A stretch of 64,000 nucleotides of DNA, taken from assembly GCA_016291495.1 (NCBI GenBank), contig JAEEXI010000002.1, positions 113,880 through 177,879 of the forward strand. Direction: 5' to 3'. The DNA comes from Prevotella sp. Lineage in GTDB: Bacteria; Bacteroidota; Bacteroidia; Bacteroidales; Bacteroidaceae. The notes below the pieces were generated by a model. It searched no databases. It was not told the origin of the DNA and worked only from the letters and a program-made list of their open reading frames with translations. Positions 6,713 through 53,628 of this stretch are shown piece by piece; the stretch's first letter is position 1, and each line of letters begins with the position of its first letter. The translations under genes were made by a program, and so were the position numbers.

Positions 6713-7441
6713 CAGCCCCGCTGCTAAAATCTCTACTACGTGCTTGAACTCAATCTTCTTGCCTTGCTTGCGGGCTACACCAGCCATATGCATCAGACAA
6801 GAGCAGTCTGGACCAGTGATATACTCAGCACCCGTCTGGATATGACGCTCCACCTTGTCGAGTCCCATCTGGGCGGACACGGCGGTCTCCTCGACGCTGA
6901 ACATGCCGCCGAAGCCGCAGCACTCGTCAGGACGCTCAGGTTCCACGACATCGATGCCGTCAACCAATTGCAACAGGTCCTTGATCTTATTGAACTTCGC
7001 TACATGCTCCTCAGAAGGGGAGGAGAGTCCCAGCTCGCGAACACCATGACAGGAATTGTGCAGGCTGACCTTATGGGCAAAGGTGCCCAGACGGCGGTCG
7101 ACCTTCACCACGTCGTGCAGGAACTCGACCACGTCCATGCATCTCTTGGCGCTCTCGCACTCATGGTTCAGCAGTCGCGGATAGTTCAGACGGATAAACG
7201 CCGTACAACTGACACTGGGTGACACCACATAGTCGAAGTCCTTGAAGAGGTCGTCAAACTTCTCTGCCAAAGGAATGGCTTGTTTCTCGAATCCTGCATT
7301 GGCCATCGGCTGACCGCAGCAGGTCTGTTTCTGTGGATACGTGACATCCAGCCCCAGATGCTTCAGCAACTTATAGGTTGCCAAACCCACCTCAGGATAG
7401 ACAGCATCCACATAACAGGGAATGAATAATCCAATTTTCAT
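6710..7441 (-). CDS. lutA: Lactate utilization protein A (CCG-domain Fe-S protein)
   Basis: LFIPCYVD, QTCCGQP, HNSCHGVR, ECCGFGGMF, DCSCLMH. Confidence 0.93.
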   Translation of the reverse strand: MKIGLFIPCYVDAVYPEVGLATYKLLKHLGLDVTYPQKQTCCGQPMANAGFEKQAIPLAEKFDDLFKDFDYVVSPSVSCTAFIRLNYPRLLNHECESAKRCMDVVEFLHDVVKVDRRLGTFAHKVSLHNSCHGVRELGLSSPSEEHVAKFNKIKDLLQLVDGIDVVEPERPDECCGFGGMFSVEETAVSAQMGLDKVERHIQTGAEYITGPDCSCLMHMAGVARKQGKKIEFKHVVEILAAGL

Positions 7442-48216: not shown

Positions 48217-49428
48217 ATGAGAAAACTATTCGTAATGGCTGCCCTCTGCCTGACGGGTATGGCGGCGCAGGCTCAGCAGAACCTGAACTGGGGACAGGGA
48301 CCGCAAGTGGCATCGCCTGACGTACATGCCGATAACAGTGTGACGTTTAATCTGATTGCCCCCGAGGCGCAGAAAGTGCAGATTACCGGCGACATGCTGC
48401 CGGCGCAGAAAGTGGAGTACCAGGGCAATACCTATGACATGCCGGGTGTGGTTGATTTGGTGAAGGACGATAAGGGCGTGTGGAGCTATACCACCGCGCC
48501 GCTGAAGCCCGAGCTCTATACCTATAATATAATAGTGGACGGCGTGAAGATTATCGACCCGCTGAATGTCTACAACATCCGCGACATCAACAATCTGTTC
48601 AGCGTACTGCTCATTGGTGGTGACGCACGAGCCGATTTGTATAAAGTCAATAAGGTGGCTCACGGAACGGTGAGCAAGGTGTGGTACGAGAGTCCGACGG
48701 CAGGCATCACGCGCCGCCTGACGGTCTATACCCCTGCCGGCTACGAAACCAGCGGCAAGCGCGAATATCCTGTGCTCTACCTGTTGCACGGCATCGGTGG
48801 CGACGAGAATGCTTGGAGCGAGCTCGGTCGTGCCGCACAGATTCTCGACAACCTCATCGCGCAAGGCAAAGCCGAGCCGATGTTGGTGGTGATGACCAAC
48901 GGCAATATCTCGCAGGAGGCTTGCCCCGGCGAAACCTCTGAGGGTTTCCGCGTGCCGACGATGATGCTGCCCAAGACGATGGAAGGAAGTTTCGAGACCG
49001 CCTTCCCCGACGTGGTGAAGTTCATCGAGAAGACCTACCGTGTGAAGAAAGACAAGGCCCACCGCGCCATTGCCGGTCTGTCGATGGGCGGTTTCCACAG
49101 CCTCTTTGTTTCCATCAACAATCCTGACCTCTTCGGCTACATCGGCCTGTTCTCTGCTGCCGTCGATCAGCAGCAGCCCGACCCCAACGGTCATCCGGAA
49201 ATCTACGCCGACCGCAACGGGAAGATCGACCGCCTGTTTGCCAAGAATCCCAAGCTCTTCTGGATTGGCATCGGCAAGACCGACTTCCTCATCAAGAACA
49301 ACAACGACCTGCGTGCCTACCTCGACTCGAAGCAGCACAAGTACACCTACCTCGAGACCGACGGCGGTCACATCTGGCGCAACTGGCGCATCTACCTTTC
49401 CGAATTTACTCCTTTATTATTTAAATAA
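48217..49428 (+). CDS. CBM48-like plus CE1 esterase (feruloyl/acetylxylan esterase family), paralog 1
   Basis: [25 protein letters not shown]. Confidence 0.88.
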   Translation: MRKLFVMAALCLTGMAAQAQQNLNWGQGPQVASPDVHADNSVTFNLIAPEAQKVQITGDMLPAQKVEYQGNTYDMPGVVDLVKDDKGVWSYTTAPLKPELYTYNIIVDGVKIIDPLNVYNIRDINNLFSVLLIGGDARADLYKVNKVAHGTVSKVWYESPTAGITRRLTVYTPAGYETSGKREYPVLYLLHGIGGDENAWSELGRAAQILDNLIAQGKAEPMLVVMTNGNISQEACPGETSEGFRVPTMMLPKTMEGSFETAFPDVVKFIEKTYRVKKDKAHRAIAGLSMGGFHSLFVSINNPDLFGYIGLFSAAVDQQQPDPNGHPEIYADRNGKIDRLFAKNPKLFWIGIGKTDFLIKNNNDLRAYLDSKQHKYTYLETDGGHIWRNWRIYLSEFTPLLFK

Positions 49429-49433
49429 GTCCT

Positions 49434-51794
49434 ATGAAAAAGTCTATGTTTTACGTGCTCGGTATAGCAGCCCTCGTTATGGGTTGTAACGCTACCGACA
49501 AAGTGACTAAGAGCACCATCGACCAGCAGGAAGTGATGAGCAAGTTGTCGCTCGAAGACAAGGCCCACTTCGTCATCGGTGTGGGTATGGAAGGCTTCAG
49601 CGGTGACAATGCCGTCATCGGCGCCACGAAGAACCTCGTGCCCGGTGCCGCAGGTACCACCTATCCCCTCGACTCCCTTGGCATCCCAGCCATCGTTCTG
49701 GCAGACGGTCCTGCCGGACTGCGTATTGATGCCAAGCGCGAAGGCGACTCTGCCACTTATTATTGTACCCATTTCCCCATTGGTACCCTGCTCGCCTCGA
49801 CTTGGAACACGAATCTCGTGGAGCAGGTCGGTCAGGCTATCGGCGAGGAAGTGAAGGAATATGGTGCCGACGTGCTGTTGGCTCCTGCCTTGAATATCAT
49901 GCGTAACCCGCTCTGCGGCCGCAACTTCGAGTACTACTCAGAAGACCCTGTGGTGGCAGGCAAGACCGCTGGTGCCTACATTACCGGCGTACAGAAGAAC
50001 GACGTGGGTACGAGTATCAAGCACTTCGCCGCCAACAACCAGGAGACGAACCGCATGAACACCGATGCCCGCATCTCACAGCGTGCCCTGCGCGAAATCT
50101 ACCTGAAAGGTTTCGAGATTGCCATCAAGGAGAGTAAGCCTTGGACGGTGATGACCTCCTACAACTACATCAACGGCACGTACTCCAGCGAGAGCAAGGA
50201 CCTCGTTGAGACCATCCTGCGTGACGAGTGGGGCTACGAGGGCACGGTGATGACCGACTGGTTTGGCGGCAAGGACGGTGCCAAGCAGATGTGGGCTGGC
50301 AATGACATGCTGCAGCCCGGAAAGAATGAGCAGTTCGACAGCATCGTCGCCGGCGTGAAGAGCGGCAAACTGGCCGAGGCCGACCTCGACCGCAACGTCG
50401 CCCGCATCCTGAACCTCGTGGAGAAGTGTCCGCGTTTCCAGGGTTATCAGTATAGCAACAAGCCCGACCTCAAGGCTCATGCTGCCGTGACGCGCCAGTC
50501 GGCTGCCGAGGGTATGGTACTTATGAAGAATGAGAAGGCCTTGCCGTTTGCCGCGAACGTGAAGAACGTCGCCCTCTATGGCATTACGTCTTATGACTTC
50601 ATCGCCGGCGGTACGGGTTCCGGCAATGTGAACCACGCCTACGTTGTCTCGCTGCTCGACGGTATGAAGAACGGCGGCTATACCGTTTCTGAGGAACTGA
50701 AGAAAGCTTACGAGACCTACATCGCTGATGCCAAGAAGAAGGCTGAGGCCGCCCTCGAGGAACAGGCCAAGAAGGATCCGAAGAACGCCATGCTCGTGAA
50801 GTTCCTTCCCCAGCCGCTGCCCGCCGAGAAACTCTTCTCCGCTGACGAACTGGCGAAGCAGGCCGAGGCTTCCGACATCGCCGTCATCACGCTGGGCCGT
50901 TTGTCTGGCGAGTTCCTCGACCGCAAGGTGGCCGACTTCAACCTGAGCGACTCCGAGCGCCAGCTCATCACGCAGGTTTGCGACGTCTATCACAAGGCCG
51001 GCAAGCAGGTCGTTGTGCTGCTGAACATCGGTGGTGTCATCGAGACCGCTTCGTGGAAAGACCTGCCCGATGCCATCCTCTGCGCCTGGCAGGCCGGACA
51101 GGAAGGTGGCAACAGCGTCGTTGACGTGCTCAGCGGCAAGCAGTCGCCCAGCGGCAAGTTTACCATGACTTGGCCCGTGAAGTTCACCGATGCCTATTCG
51201 TCGAAGAACTTCCCCATCGACGAAGACCCGCGCATCGACATGTTCAACCAGGGCAAGAAGGGCAACGTCCGCAACGTGGACTATACCGAATATGAGGAGG
51301 ACATCTACGTCGGCTACCGCTACTTCGACTCGTTCGACGTTCCCGTCTCTTATCCCTTCGGCTATGGCCTGAGCTACACCACCTTCGCGTACAGCGATGC
51401 CAGGATAGCCCATAAGGACGACGGCTACGACATCTCTGTCACTGTCAAGAACACCGGCGACCGCGAGGGCAAGGAAGTCGTGGAACTCTACGCTGCCGCT
51501 CCCGACTCGAAGGCTGCCAACAAGCCCGCCAAGGAGCTGAAGGCCTTCGCCAAGACCAAGAGCCTGAAGCCTGGCGAGAGCGAGAAGCTGACCTTCAAGA
51601 TCAATGCCGCCGACCTGGCTTCCTACGACGAGGCCGCTTCTGCATGGGTGGTTGCCGAGGGCGATTACCAGTTCCTCGTCGCCGCCTCCGCTACCGACAT
51701 CAAGGCCTCGCTCAAGGCTACTGTCAAGGCTCAGCAGACGAAGGCCCACAACGTGCTGAACCCCCAGACGAAGATGAACCTGTTGAAAAGATAA
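49434..51794 (+). CDS. GH3 beta-glucosidase/xylosidase lipoprotein with Fn3-like C-terminus
   Basis: Lipobox VMGC, ADGPAGLR, GRNFEYYSEDP, KHFAAN, MTDW, YPFGYGLSYT. Confidence 0.95.
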   Translation: MKKSMFYVLGIAALVMGCNATDKVTKSTIDQQEVMSKLSLEDKAHFVIGVGMEGFSGDNAVIGATKNLVPGAAGTTYPLDSLGIPAIVLADGPAGLRIDAKREGDSATYYCTHFPIGTLLASTWNTNLVEQVGQAIGEEVKEYGADVLLAPALNIMRNPLCGRNFEYYSEDPVVAGKTAGAYITGVQKNDVGTSIKHFAANNQETNRMNTDARISQRALREIYLKGFEIAIKESKPWTVMTSYNYINGTYSSESKDLVETILRDEWGYEGTVMTDWFGGKDGAKQMWAGNDMLQPGKNEQFDSIVAGVKSGKLAEADLDRNVARILNLVEKCPRFQGYQYSNKPDLKAHAAVTRQSAAEGMVLMKNEKALPFAANVKNVALYGITSYDFIAGGTGSGNVNHAYVVSLLDGMKNGGYTVSEELKKAYETYIADAKKKAEAALEEQAKKDPKNAMLVKFLPQPLPAEKLFSADELAKQAEASDIAVITLGRLSGEFLDRKVADFNLSDSERQLITQVCDVYHKAGKQVVVLLNIGGVIETASWKDLPDAILCAWQAGQEGGNSVVDVLSGKQSPSGKFTMTWPVKFTDAYSSKNFPIDEDPRIDMFNQGKKGNVRNVDYTEYEEDIYVGYRYFDSFDVPVSYPFGYGLSYTTFAYSDARIAHKDDGYDISVTVKNTGDREGKEVVELYAAAPDSKAANKPAKELKAFAKTKSLKPGESEKLTFKINAADLASYDEAASAWVVAEGDYQFLVAASATDIKASLKATVKAQQTKAHNVLNPQTKMNLLKR

Positions 51795-53060
<1,266 letters not shown>

Positions 53061-53116
53061 CGCCCTTAGGTTGACGGCCAAACGATAAGGAGCACCGCCA
53101 GTTTGAAGGCAAACTT

Positions 53117-53148
53117 AAAAGGAGCACCCACCGAAGGATGCTCCTTTT
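53117..53148. terminator. Bidirectional terminator
   Basis: AAAAGGAGCA...TGCTCCTTTT. Confidence 0.75.
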
Positions 53149-53168
53149 CTTATTCCGTACCCCAATTT

Positions 53169-53255
53169 TCGTAAACTAGTTATCTTAAAATCGTAAACTA
53201 GTTATCTTAAAATCGTAAACTAGTTATCTTAGAATCGTAAACTAGTTACTTTAGA
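53169..53255. repeat. 4 x 22-bp tandem array (TCGTAAACTAGTTATCTTAAAA), iteron-like
   Basis: Copies start at 53169, 53191, 53213 and 53235; each contains the palindrome AACTAGTT. Confidence 0.93.
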
Positions 53256-53285
53256 TTACTCGCCCTACTGGCTTCCGTTGGCAAA

Positions 53286-53540
53286 TTAACGAAATTTCCG
53301 CCGTCCCCCTTTCTTGCCATTCTCGGAGGCTACCTTCGACCGCTCGGCTGAGTCCTTGCCCAACGATTCTTCGAAATTGTTCCTAAAGGCGAAGTCCGAA
53401 ACCTGTCTCGGCTTCAGTCCCAGCAGCCGCGCCAGCTTCGCCGTCGGCATCAAGCGGAAGAGCCGCATAATCTTTTCACCATACAATGCCTTGCTGAACC
53501 GCCGACCCGTCTGCGGCTCTTCATTCTGTTTCTTCTTCAT
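53286..53540 (-). CDS. Small basic hypothetical protein, possible HTH plus a KGG-like tail
   Basis: AKLARLLGLKPRQVS and SENGKKGGRRK. Confidence 0.65.
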   Translation of the reverse strand: MKKKQNEEPQTGRRFSKALYGEKIMRLFRLMPTAKLARLLGLKPRQVSDFAFRNNFEESLGKDSAERSKVASENGKKGGRRKFR

Positions 53541-53569
53541 AATTTTACTGTTTTTTATCCATAGAAAAA

Positions 53570-53592
53570 GGGAGCCCGAAGGCTCCCCGTGT
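53570..53592 (-). terminator. mnmE terminator with a UUCG tetraloop
   Basis: Minus strand GGGAGCC-TTCG-GGCTCCC-TTTTT (stem 53570-53587). Confidence 0.85.
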
Positions 53593-53628
53593 TTTTTGCT
53601 CTCTCGTTGTAGTCACTATGACCTGACG

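Follow-up and report, generated by a model that had tools for sequence, protein, structure and literature searches.

In the 64,000-nucleotide stretch of Prevotella sp. DNA analysed here (the window), four 22-bp direct repeats lie between the 3′ end of an 84-aa ORF on the minus strand and the terminator hairpin of a convergent esterase gene on the plus strand, raising the question of whether such an array is the relic of an integrated replicon, a set of binding sites for the small protein encoded beside it, or the remnant of something else. The repeats and their internal palindrome, as reported in the initial annotation, were borne out by direct reading, by TRF (period 22, 3.6 copies, 98% matches, score 153) and by shuffling, with three matches to the unit at up to three mismatches against 0.00 expected in 100 shuffles. 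A perfect 8-bp palindrome, AACTAGTT, is present in all four units; along the strand of the module described below the unit reads TCTAAGATAACTAGTTTACGAT, and the array is a single occurrence in the 2.88-Mb genome. It forms an AT-rich island in GC-rich surroundings, as had also been stated, with a GC content of 0.28 against ~0.6 in both flanks, and its four units at a period of 22 bp are tandem, in-phase direct repeats within the 17–22 bp range by which iterons are recognised. The array and its neighbours in the window, several of which are components of a recurrent module, are as follows.

54918–53629, minus strand: mnmE.
53569–53588, found on both strands by terminator scan: bidirectional terminator hairpin (GGGGAGCC-TTCG-GGCTCCC) after mnmE.
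53540–53286, minus strand: 84-aa ORF from the ORF list, encoding a small helical HTH protein.
53304–53305: deletion junction, with 48–49 bp missing relative to intact modules, placed by alignments to the paralogue on contig C6 and to the class-B loci L017, L038, L033 and L014.
53256–53304, minus strand: conserved spacer, ACGGCGGAAATTTCGTTAATTTGCCAACGGAAGCCAGTAGGGCGAGTAA.
53282–53289: promoter-like box TTAATTTG inside the spacer, with a CGGAA motif on either side.
53169–53255, minus on the strand of the module (plus-strand reading TCGTAAACTAGTTATCTTAAAA): array of four head-to-tail 22-bp units.
53169–53190 and 53191–53212: units 1 and 2, each TCGTAAACTAGTTATCTTAAAA in the plus-strand reading.
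53213–53234: unit 3, ending TTAGAA.
53235–53255: unit 4, a 21-nt variant ending TTACTTTAGA.
53153–53168, minus strand: final stretch of module homology past the array, AAATTGGGGTACGGAA in the window against AAAGTCGGGGTATTGG in L017 and L018.
53116–53149: bidirectional terminator-like hairpin (AAAAGGAGCAccc..ggaTGCTCCTTTT) of the convergent esterase gene, with a 13-pair stem by RNA folding.
51816–53060, plus strand: esterase gene.

The array is one component of a module that recurs across loci and consists of (1) a gene for an HTH protein of ~85 aa, (2) a ~60-bp spacer with a TTnnTTTG box, (3) a tandem array of dyad-symmetric units and (4) a downstream gene. Twenty-eight loci with enough downstream sequence were compared, comprising the window, the C6 paralogue in the same genome, four GTDB loci and 22 metagenome loci; in all 28, TRF located a tandem array 31–88 bp past the stop codon of the small ORF (31 bp in the window), with a period of 22 bp in most loci and of 41, 42 or 44 bp in the rest. 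Unit sequences are specific to the locus, each with a dyad core (AACTAGTT, GACCACGGTC, GGGCACGYCC, GGGGCGCCCC, AGTACT, AAGTATACTT, GAATTC or AGAAT..ATTCT). The spacer is conserved in 27 of the 28 loci, as an A-run/T-run element followed by GGCGGAAnTTTCGTTnATTTGCnGnCGGAAG, the TTnnTTTG part of which resembles TAnnTTTG, the −7 element of Bacteroidetes promoters. In the module loci compared, no conserved sequence was found between the array and the downstream ATG, and wherever the sequence continued a downstream gene starts 14–115 bp past the array.

Downstream genes fall into four classes, all of whose products carry glycine-rich acidic tails. Class A (MAQLKLRIKKV...) matches the HU-HIG family (PF18291, E = 3.6e-14) and class D matches it at 30 bits; class B (MAKVKYTIKEN...) scores 22.7 bits to HU-HIG, under the 26.2-bit Pfam cut-off, but BLASTP shows it to be a homologue of class A (E = 7e-6); class C, which lies behind 42-bp arrays, is DUF6261 (PF19775) and not HU-HIG. 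This branch of 42-bp units (L011, L019, L020, L023, L025 and L026) has 4.8–7.4 copies ahead of a DUF6261 gene with a glycine-rich tail. A search for the class-B HU-like protein in 301 genomes across the order returned no match at E ≤ 1e-10, and a PDB sequence search with the HU-like alignment returned nothing significant. Intact modules have two genes only and sit amid ordinary housekeeping genes that differ by locus, for example asnS and an aldo-keto reductase gene. On contig C6 of the genome under study, the module has 6.6 copies of the 22-bp unit CGAGCACGCTCAATTGACGAAT, with the dyad core GAGC-AC-GCTC, followed after 37 bp by a 175-aa gene with an HU-HIG match (PF18291, E = 3.6e-14), and has in common with the window the upstream hairpin, the leader and the ORF–array spacer. 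At the 5′ edge of the module, the conserved sequence comprises the mnmE-side hairpin and ~45 bp up to the start of the small ORF, a stretch nearly identical in the C6 copy; the hairpin is also found in L014, and the genes upstream differ. The hairpin GGGGAGCCTTCGGGCTCCC and leader TTTTTCTATGGATAAAAAACAGTA at 53554–53600 of the window correspond, nearly identically, to 6780–6830 of the C6 copy (L010), and no promoter-like box is visible between the mnmE-side hairpin and the ATG of the small ORF.

The small protein belongs to a family of 17 clusters, with 27 representative clusters at E ≤ 1e-10 among 1.84 billion proteins, whose loci (five in GTDB genomes and 27 in metagenomes, from rumen metagenomes and MAGs) are those of rumen Bacteroidales, namely rumen Prevotella and other Bacteroidaceae. 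Identity of the window ORF to family members is 45–71%, and to its paralogue on C6 49%; across 40 relatives, the small protein was matched in its own genome only, and the unit pattern of the array was not found. Pfam returned generic HTH matches below threshold for the protein and its distant relatives, and no DUF4248; an AlphaFold model (pLDDT 74.7) has five helices and a disordered tail, and Foldseek against the PDB gave weak LuxR/GerE and homeodomain-like matches (E > 1). The family alignment has a conserved C-terminal tail, GKKGGRPRKK, which is basic and AT-hook-like, and the window copy lacks both the GRPRKK end and its own stop codon, and now ends ...GGRRKFR.

A 48–49-bp deletion at 53304|53305 took these last codons, the stop codon and the A-run/T-run element AAAAAGCTAAnnCnTTTTT, so that the 84-aa ORF now ends in the promoter-like box, its present stop codon falling inside TTAATTTG. 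The remaining spacer, ACGGCGGAAATTTCGTTAATTTGCCAACGGAAGCC, aligns with those of 27 other loci, its 5′ part having been deleted. Class-B loci of the L017 and L038 type, whose unit is CTGGAAGTATACTTTTACGGAG, share homology with the window in the spacer, in the unit (..TTTACG..) and over ~15 bp past the array, and just past the array the window has AAATTGGGGTA where L017 has AAAGTCGGGGTA; homology to the module stops ~15 bp past the array, at the esterase terminator. No ORF for an HU-like protein follows the array, and there is no class-B HU-like gene anywhere in the genome, in which none of nine PF18291 matches is class B. The family ORF, the spacer with its box and an array with a dyad core within 90 bp are all present in the window, and the downstream gene is missing. 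With no HU-HIG-type or DUF6261 gene past its array, the window therefore holds a truncated copy and not a complete member of the module, of the class-B type, from which the HU-like gene has been lost; with no class-B HU-like gene left in the genome, the array is an orphan. The proposal that it might be the relic of an integrated element is thus half retained: it is a relic, because its module is truncated here, whereas for an origin in a plasmid, ICE or phage no support was found.

Strains were compared through contigs from other samples that encode the identical or a 99%-identical ORF. Flanks and truncation in these conspecific contigs are identical to those of the window, and the arrays differ in copy number by whole units, with three in L043, L048 and L049, four in the window and L044–L046, and five in L047. 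Within the species, the array behaves as a VNTR, and variation of this kind had been listed in the initial annotation among the outcomes that would count against a functional array.

On balance, we regard the window array as the orphaned repeat component of a truncated module, an operator-type array probably once read by the lost HU-like protein. In intact modules, the array would offer in-phase, operator-type sites, two helical turns apart, to a dimeric DNA-binding protein, the likeliest binder being the product of the downstream gene, which would control its own promoter; the small HTH protein would instead have its site in the conserved spacer, about the promoter box. The orphan array in the window may keep its form through slippage and recent homogenisation, drifting at 3–5 units, and would yield at most a short orphan transcript ending at the esterase terminator; the hairpin there would also end any transcript reading through the array. 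The likeness to a protein-binding array noted at the outset holds up, in the helical phasing, in the dyad core and in the preservation of the dyad by two-sided changes in related arrays. That the HU-like product binds the array, that the small protein binds the spacer, and where the promoter lies are all inferred. DNA-level binding is ranked first, as the best reading, and a role in an RNA leader second. Against an operator stand the class-C arrays, which sit before DUF6261 genes and not HU-HIG genes, and the varying position of the array relative to TAnnTTTG among other HU-HIG loci.

The assignment of the array to the downstream protein, and of the spacer to the small one, derives from how unit type is distributed. 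In 16 of 16 locus pairs with one unit family, the downstream proteins are at least 90% identical, and the small proteins down to 45%; L017 and L038, for instance, have an identical unit and small proteins only 45% identical. Small-protein pairs 86–87% identical are found with unrelated units, and in L034 and L014 the small proteins (86% identical, with one residue different from position 31 on, both HTH helices included) have the same predicted recognition helix, yet the units are unrelated (GGGGCGCCCC... against GAGTTAGTACTG...). Unit type follows the downstream gene and not the small protein, which makes the small protein an unlikely binder of the array; the array goes with the gene behind it, and the conserved spacer is the better partner for the conserved small protein. 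This co-travel could merely reflect recombination in the conserved spacer, with no functional tie between array and downstream gene.

The 46 distinct units of class A can be aligned on an 18-bp dyad, AATCGnnC-AC-GnnCAATT, in whose arms two-sided changes have occurred (GACC/GGTC, GAGC/GCTC, GGGC/GCCC and GGGGC/GCCCC). Cells with two-sided changes number 44, against 20.6 ± 3.1 in shuffles (0 of 500 reach 44), and slid controls collapse, the count being drawn from few independent lineages. Across loci with different dyad arms the class-A HU domain is 88–94% identical, so that a private code between protein and array would rest on very few residues; residues co-varying with the dyad arms were sought in the class-A HU-HIG proteins, which are highly conserved and come from few lineages. 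This conservation weakens a strict reading of one protein, one code.

Linkage of an array to an HU-HIG gene extends beyond the module. In a census of 30 HU-HIG loci sampled from 60 Bacteroidaceae genomes, of which 28 were usable, ~12 of the 28 have a 20–22-bp or 44-bp array, mostly with a dyad core, no more than 240 nt upstream, against a background of such arrays in 0.7–1.6% of 400-nt tiles in the genome of the window; in that genome, four of seven non-classical HU-HIG genes have the array layout. Within the HU/IHF superfamily, the HU-HIG clade (PF18291; Burroughs et al. 2017) is fast-diverging and lineage-specifically expanded, with a glycine-rich C-terminal motif, and the published survey reported no conserved genomic linkage (PMC5499826). 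The class-A and class-D module genes are alike in matching the family, in their fast divergence and lineage-specific expansion and in the glycine-rich C-terminal motif; unlike the clade as described, they have a conserved upstream array and, in the rumen subfamily, also a small HTH gene, with class B scoring below the cut-off and class C being DUF6261. No account of arrays like these, in Bacteroides or Prevotella, emerged from a literature search. HU-HIG proteins form a large, fast-evolving, Bacteroidota-specific branch of HU/IHF; what is new is the conserved linkage of their genes to a private, helically phased upstream dyad array and, in one rumen subfamily, to a dedicated small HTH gene and a promoter-like spacer as well, making the question of what HU-HIG proteins bind directly testable. 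The window copy amounts to a natural deletion experiment, in which the loss of the HU-like gene has left the array and the small ORF in place, with the array behaving as a VNTR.

Phased tandem repeats by the promoter of their own small dimeric binder occur in the ParR–parC systems of R1 and pSK41 and in the heptad arrays of the omega repressor (pSM19035), where binding is cooperative, the operon is self-regulated and the unit sequence is private to each system. The module arrays are likewise tandem, helically phased short repeats beside a promoter-like element, with a unit private to the system; they differ in having no partition ATPase or plasmid context, in a presumed binder with an HU fold and not a ribbon-helix-helix, in units that are each themselves a dyad, and in the absence of the protein gene from the window. 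Dispersed intergenic palindromic units are tied to an HU/IHF-superfamily protein in the REP/BIME elements with IHF-binding sites (RIB/RIP) of enterobacteria. Similarly, the unit that stands upstream of one HU-HIG gene also recurs in dispersed copies in the genome of the window, whereas the module arrays keep a strict 22-bp tandem period by a promoter and not at a gene 3′ end, and the window unit is unique in its genome.

It is conceivable, if rather unlikely, that the array acts instead at the RNA level, lying in the 5′ leader of the downstream mRNA, where hairpins formed between neighbouring self-complementary cores would govern stability or translation, or recruit a protein; in the window, this would give an orphan RNA of ~160 nt running from the promoter-like box to the esterase terminator. 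In 27 of 28 loci the array is preceded by the sole conserved promoter-like element, so that it is probably transcribed, with nothing conserved between array and ATG, and three HU-HIG genes of the same genome (C22, C21 and C6:42816) have the same order of perfect TAnnTTTG, 21–22-nt repeats and ATG; in other HU-HIG loci (L078 and L097), however, the array comes ahead of the TAnnTTTG match. The predicted 165-nt window RNA folds with pairing between adjacent AACUAGUU cores (z = −3.3, partly owed to the terminator), and some predicted leaders reach z = −3 to −4.8, but leader z-scores are inconsistent, from +1.0 to −4.8, with several near 0 or above. In favour of an RNA role, the arms vary freely in sequence but remain self-complementary beside conserved proteins. 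Mismatches in the dyad on the sense strand have no G:U bias, however, with 34 G:T against 49 A:C, and in the absence of a G:T excess a DNA dyad is favoured over RNA stems. For periods held strictly at 22, 42 or 44 bp (two or four helical turns) across unrelated units, DNA offers a ready explanation and RNA does not. An Rfam scan of the window region and ten related loci gave nothing near any gathering score.

A bolder version of the operator reading, which we hold to be doubtful, treats the small-HTH gene and the promoter box as a fixed ‘expression pad’ onto which cassettes of array plus gene (HU-HIG classes A, B and D, or DUF6261) would be swapped by recombination in the spacer, each cassette protein reading a private 22-bp dyad code and orphan arrays being footprints of cassette loss or persisting decoy or address sites. 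Were it true, HU-HIG proteins would gain a defined DNA target and a mode of turnover.

There is little chance that the array is a binding site (operator, centromere or iteron) of the adjacent 84-aa HTH protein, as the initial annotation had proposed. Small ORF and array are adjacent in 28 of 28 loci, the protein has a predicted HTH with a basic, AT-hook-like tail, and the dyad core of the unit would suit an HTH dimer; specificity of the unit nevertheless fails to track the small protein, as in the L034/L014 and L017/L038 pairs, a conserved protein fits the conserved spacer better than the variable array, and the window protein is without the conserved basic tail.

Equally improbable is a neutral, slippage-prone repeat that hitch-hikes with the module and has no sequence-specific function at any locus. 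The window array resembles VNTR/MLVA loci as an intergenic repeat with whole-unit differences among conspecifics whose flanks are identical, it persists without its gene, copy number also varies among close relatives (5.8–8.4, 3.1–6.7 and 4.8–7.4 units), and the genome is rich in tandem arrays of periods 7/14/21 and 11/22/33. Neutrality does not account for the same array position in 28 of 28 loci despite units that are unrelated between classes, for a period held at 22 or 42–44 bp, for dyad symmetry kept by two-sided substitutions or for the enrichment of arrays upstream of HU-HIG genes across the family; this type of array is conserved in position and symmetry across species, and the window array is thus no random product of slippage.

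We give almost no credence to a replication origin (iterons) or partition centromere left by a plasmid, ICE, phage or satellite integrated next to mnmE. An AT-rich island of direct repeats, in phase at 22 bp, does have the look of iterons, but comparison of the module DNA and of the small protein with 72,556 plasmid and 50,697 phage records yielded no match, the intact modules are two-gene units among housekeeping genes, and the array units are dyad-symmetric, which typical iterons are not. Plasmid iterons (the Rep_3-type, R6K/P1/F/pSC101 class) are in-phase direct repeats of ~22 bp, in 3–7 copies and AT-rich; the window array shares the phased repeats of ~22 bp and the AT-rich setting, and departs from iterons in being palindromic, in its association with an HU-like gene and in lacking rep, a DnaA box and a plasmid homologue. 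Its distance from any rep gene, remarked on from the start, is genome-wide: profile searches of the whole genome had no match for Rep_3 (PF01051), for which controls matched, and found no DUF3987 primase-helicase. No DnaA box (TTWTNCACA) occurs near the array, all three matches in the 64-kb window lying far off, and no ATPase gene was present in the module in any locus whose ORFs were read. A Rep_3-type iteron origin was rejected, with no adjacent rep gene (the neighbours being mnmE, the 84-aa HTH ORF and the esterase gene), no DnaA box and no plasmid relatives, as was a partition centromere, with no par operon of ATPase and adaptor beside the array. For annotation, 22-bp ‘iteron-like’ arrays in Bacteroidales chromosomes give no grounds for assuming a plasmid or ICE remnant.

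The 3′ end of mnmE had also been raised as an integration site, and this has one piece of indirect support. In L056, from a relative of the same genus (G012:C10), an ORF resembling a tyrosine integrase (MAKKTITQKELVKLREKKLANGSISLYLDIYRNGKRNKEYLKLY...) lies ~260 bp past the mnmE stop codon, directly after mnmE, which fits the mnmE 3′ end as an insertion site in that genome; an integrase gene in this place in one relative means that the idea of a hotspot is not absurd, but it leaves the 0.5-kb module unexplained, and the 0.5-kb remnant in the window has no mobility gene. In the comparison with empty sites, the closest MnmE in the sampled relatives has only 71% identity, and there is no synteny past mnmE.

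On the other side of the array, two paralogous CBM48-esterase genes with the same C-terminal ending (48217–49428 and 51816–53060, plus strand) flank a GH3 beta-glucosidase gene (49434–51794), an arrangement suggestive of a small xylan or feruloyl-esterase cluster. Antisense to the GH3 and esterase genes, a frame of 1001 aa stays open (50076–53081, minus strand); it is almost certainly a shadow ORF arising from high GC at third codon positions, and no gene; calling by longest ORF is unreliable in this genome.

Tandem repeats elsewhere in the genome have a TRF period histogram with peaks at 7/14/21 (186, 65 and 65 rows) and 11/22/33 (65, 63 and 10 rows), periods 19, 20 and 23 having 3, 3 and 7 rows. 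Dyad cores occur in many of the intergenic arrays of 21–22 bp, among them TTCCCA-N4-TGGGAA (C3:151600, C11:162967, C16:24822 and C22:207604) and AATAAGG-N5-CCTTATT (C11:144140, C16:9361 and C23:72900); several of the 21–22-bp intergenic arrays end 2–120 nt before long genes for exported proteins. A genome-wide rule placing 21/22-bp arrays downstream of a TAnnTTTG box was tried and fails, the contexts of the arrays being heterogeneous. A dispersed composite element of ~350 bp is present at C2:18354, C6:138618, C16:92689, C28:5281 and C28:31102, with a short form at C22:172707, and is built from a promoter-like TATCTTTGTAACTAGAAAAGTTAT, four 21-bp units of GTTCAAGGGCnGTAAACATAA, a 22-bp array of TCACGTCnTTCTCACATTTTTC and arrays of an 11-mer, CCTATGAG. 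A long ORF follows four of the five full copies, in three cases with an N-terminal sequence resembling a signal peptide, and none was found after the C2 copy; the first part of the element alone lies 57 nt upstream of the HU-HIG gene at C22:172851.
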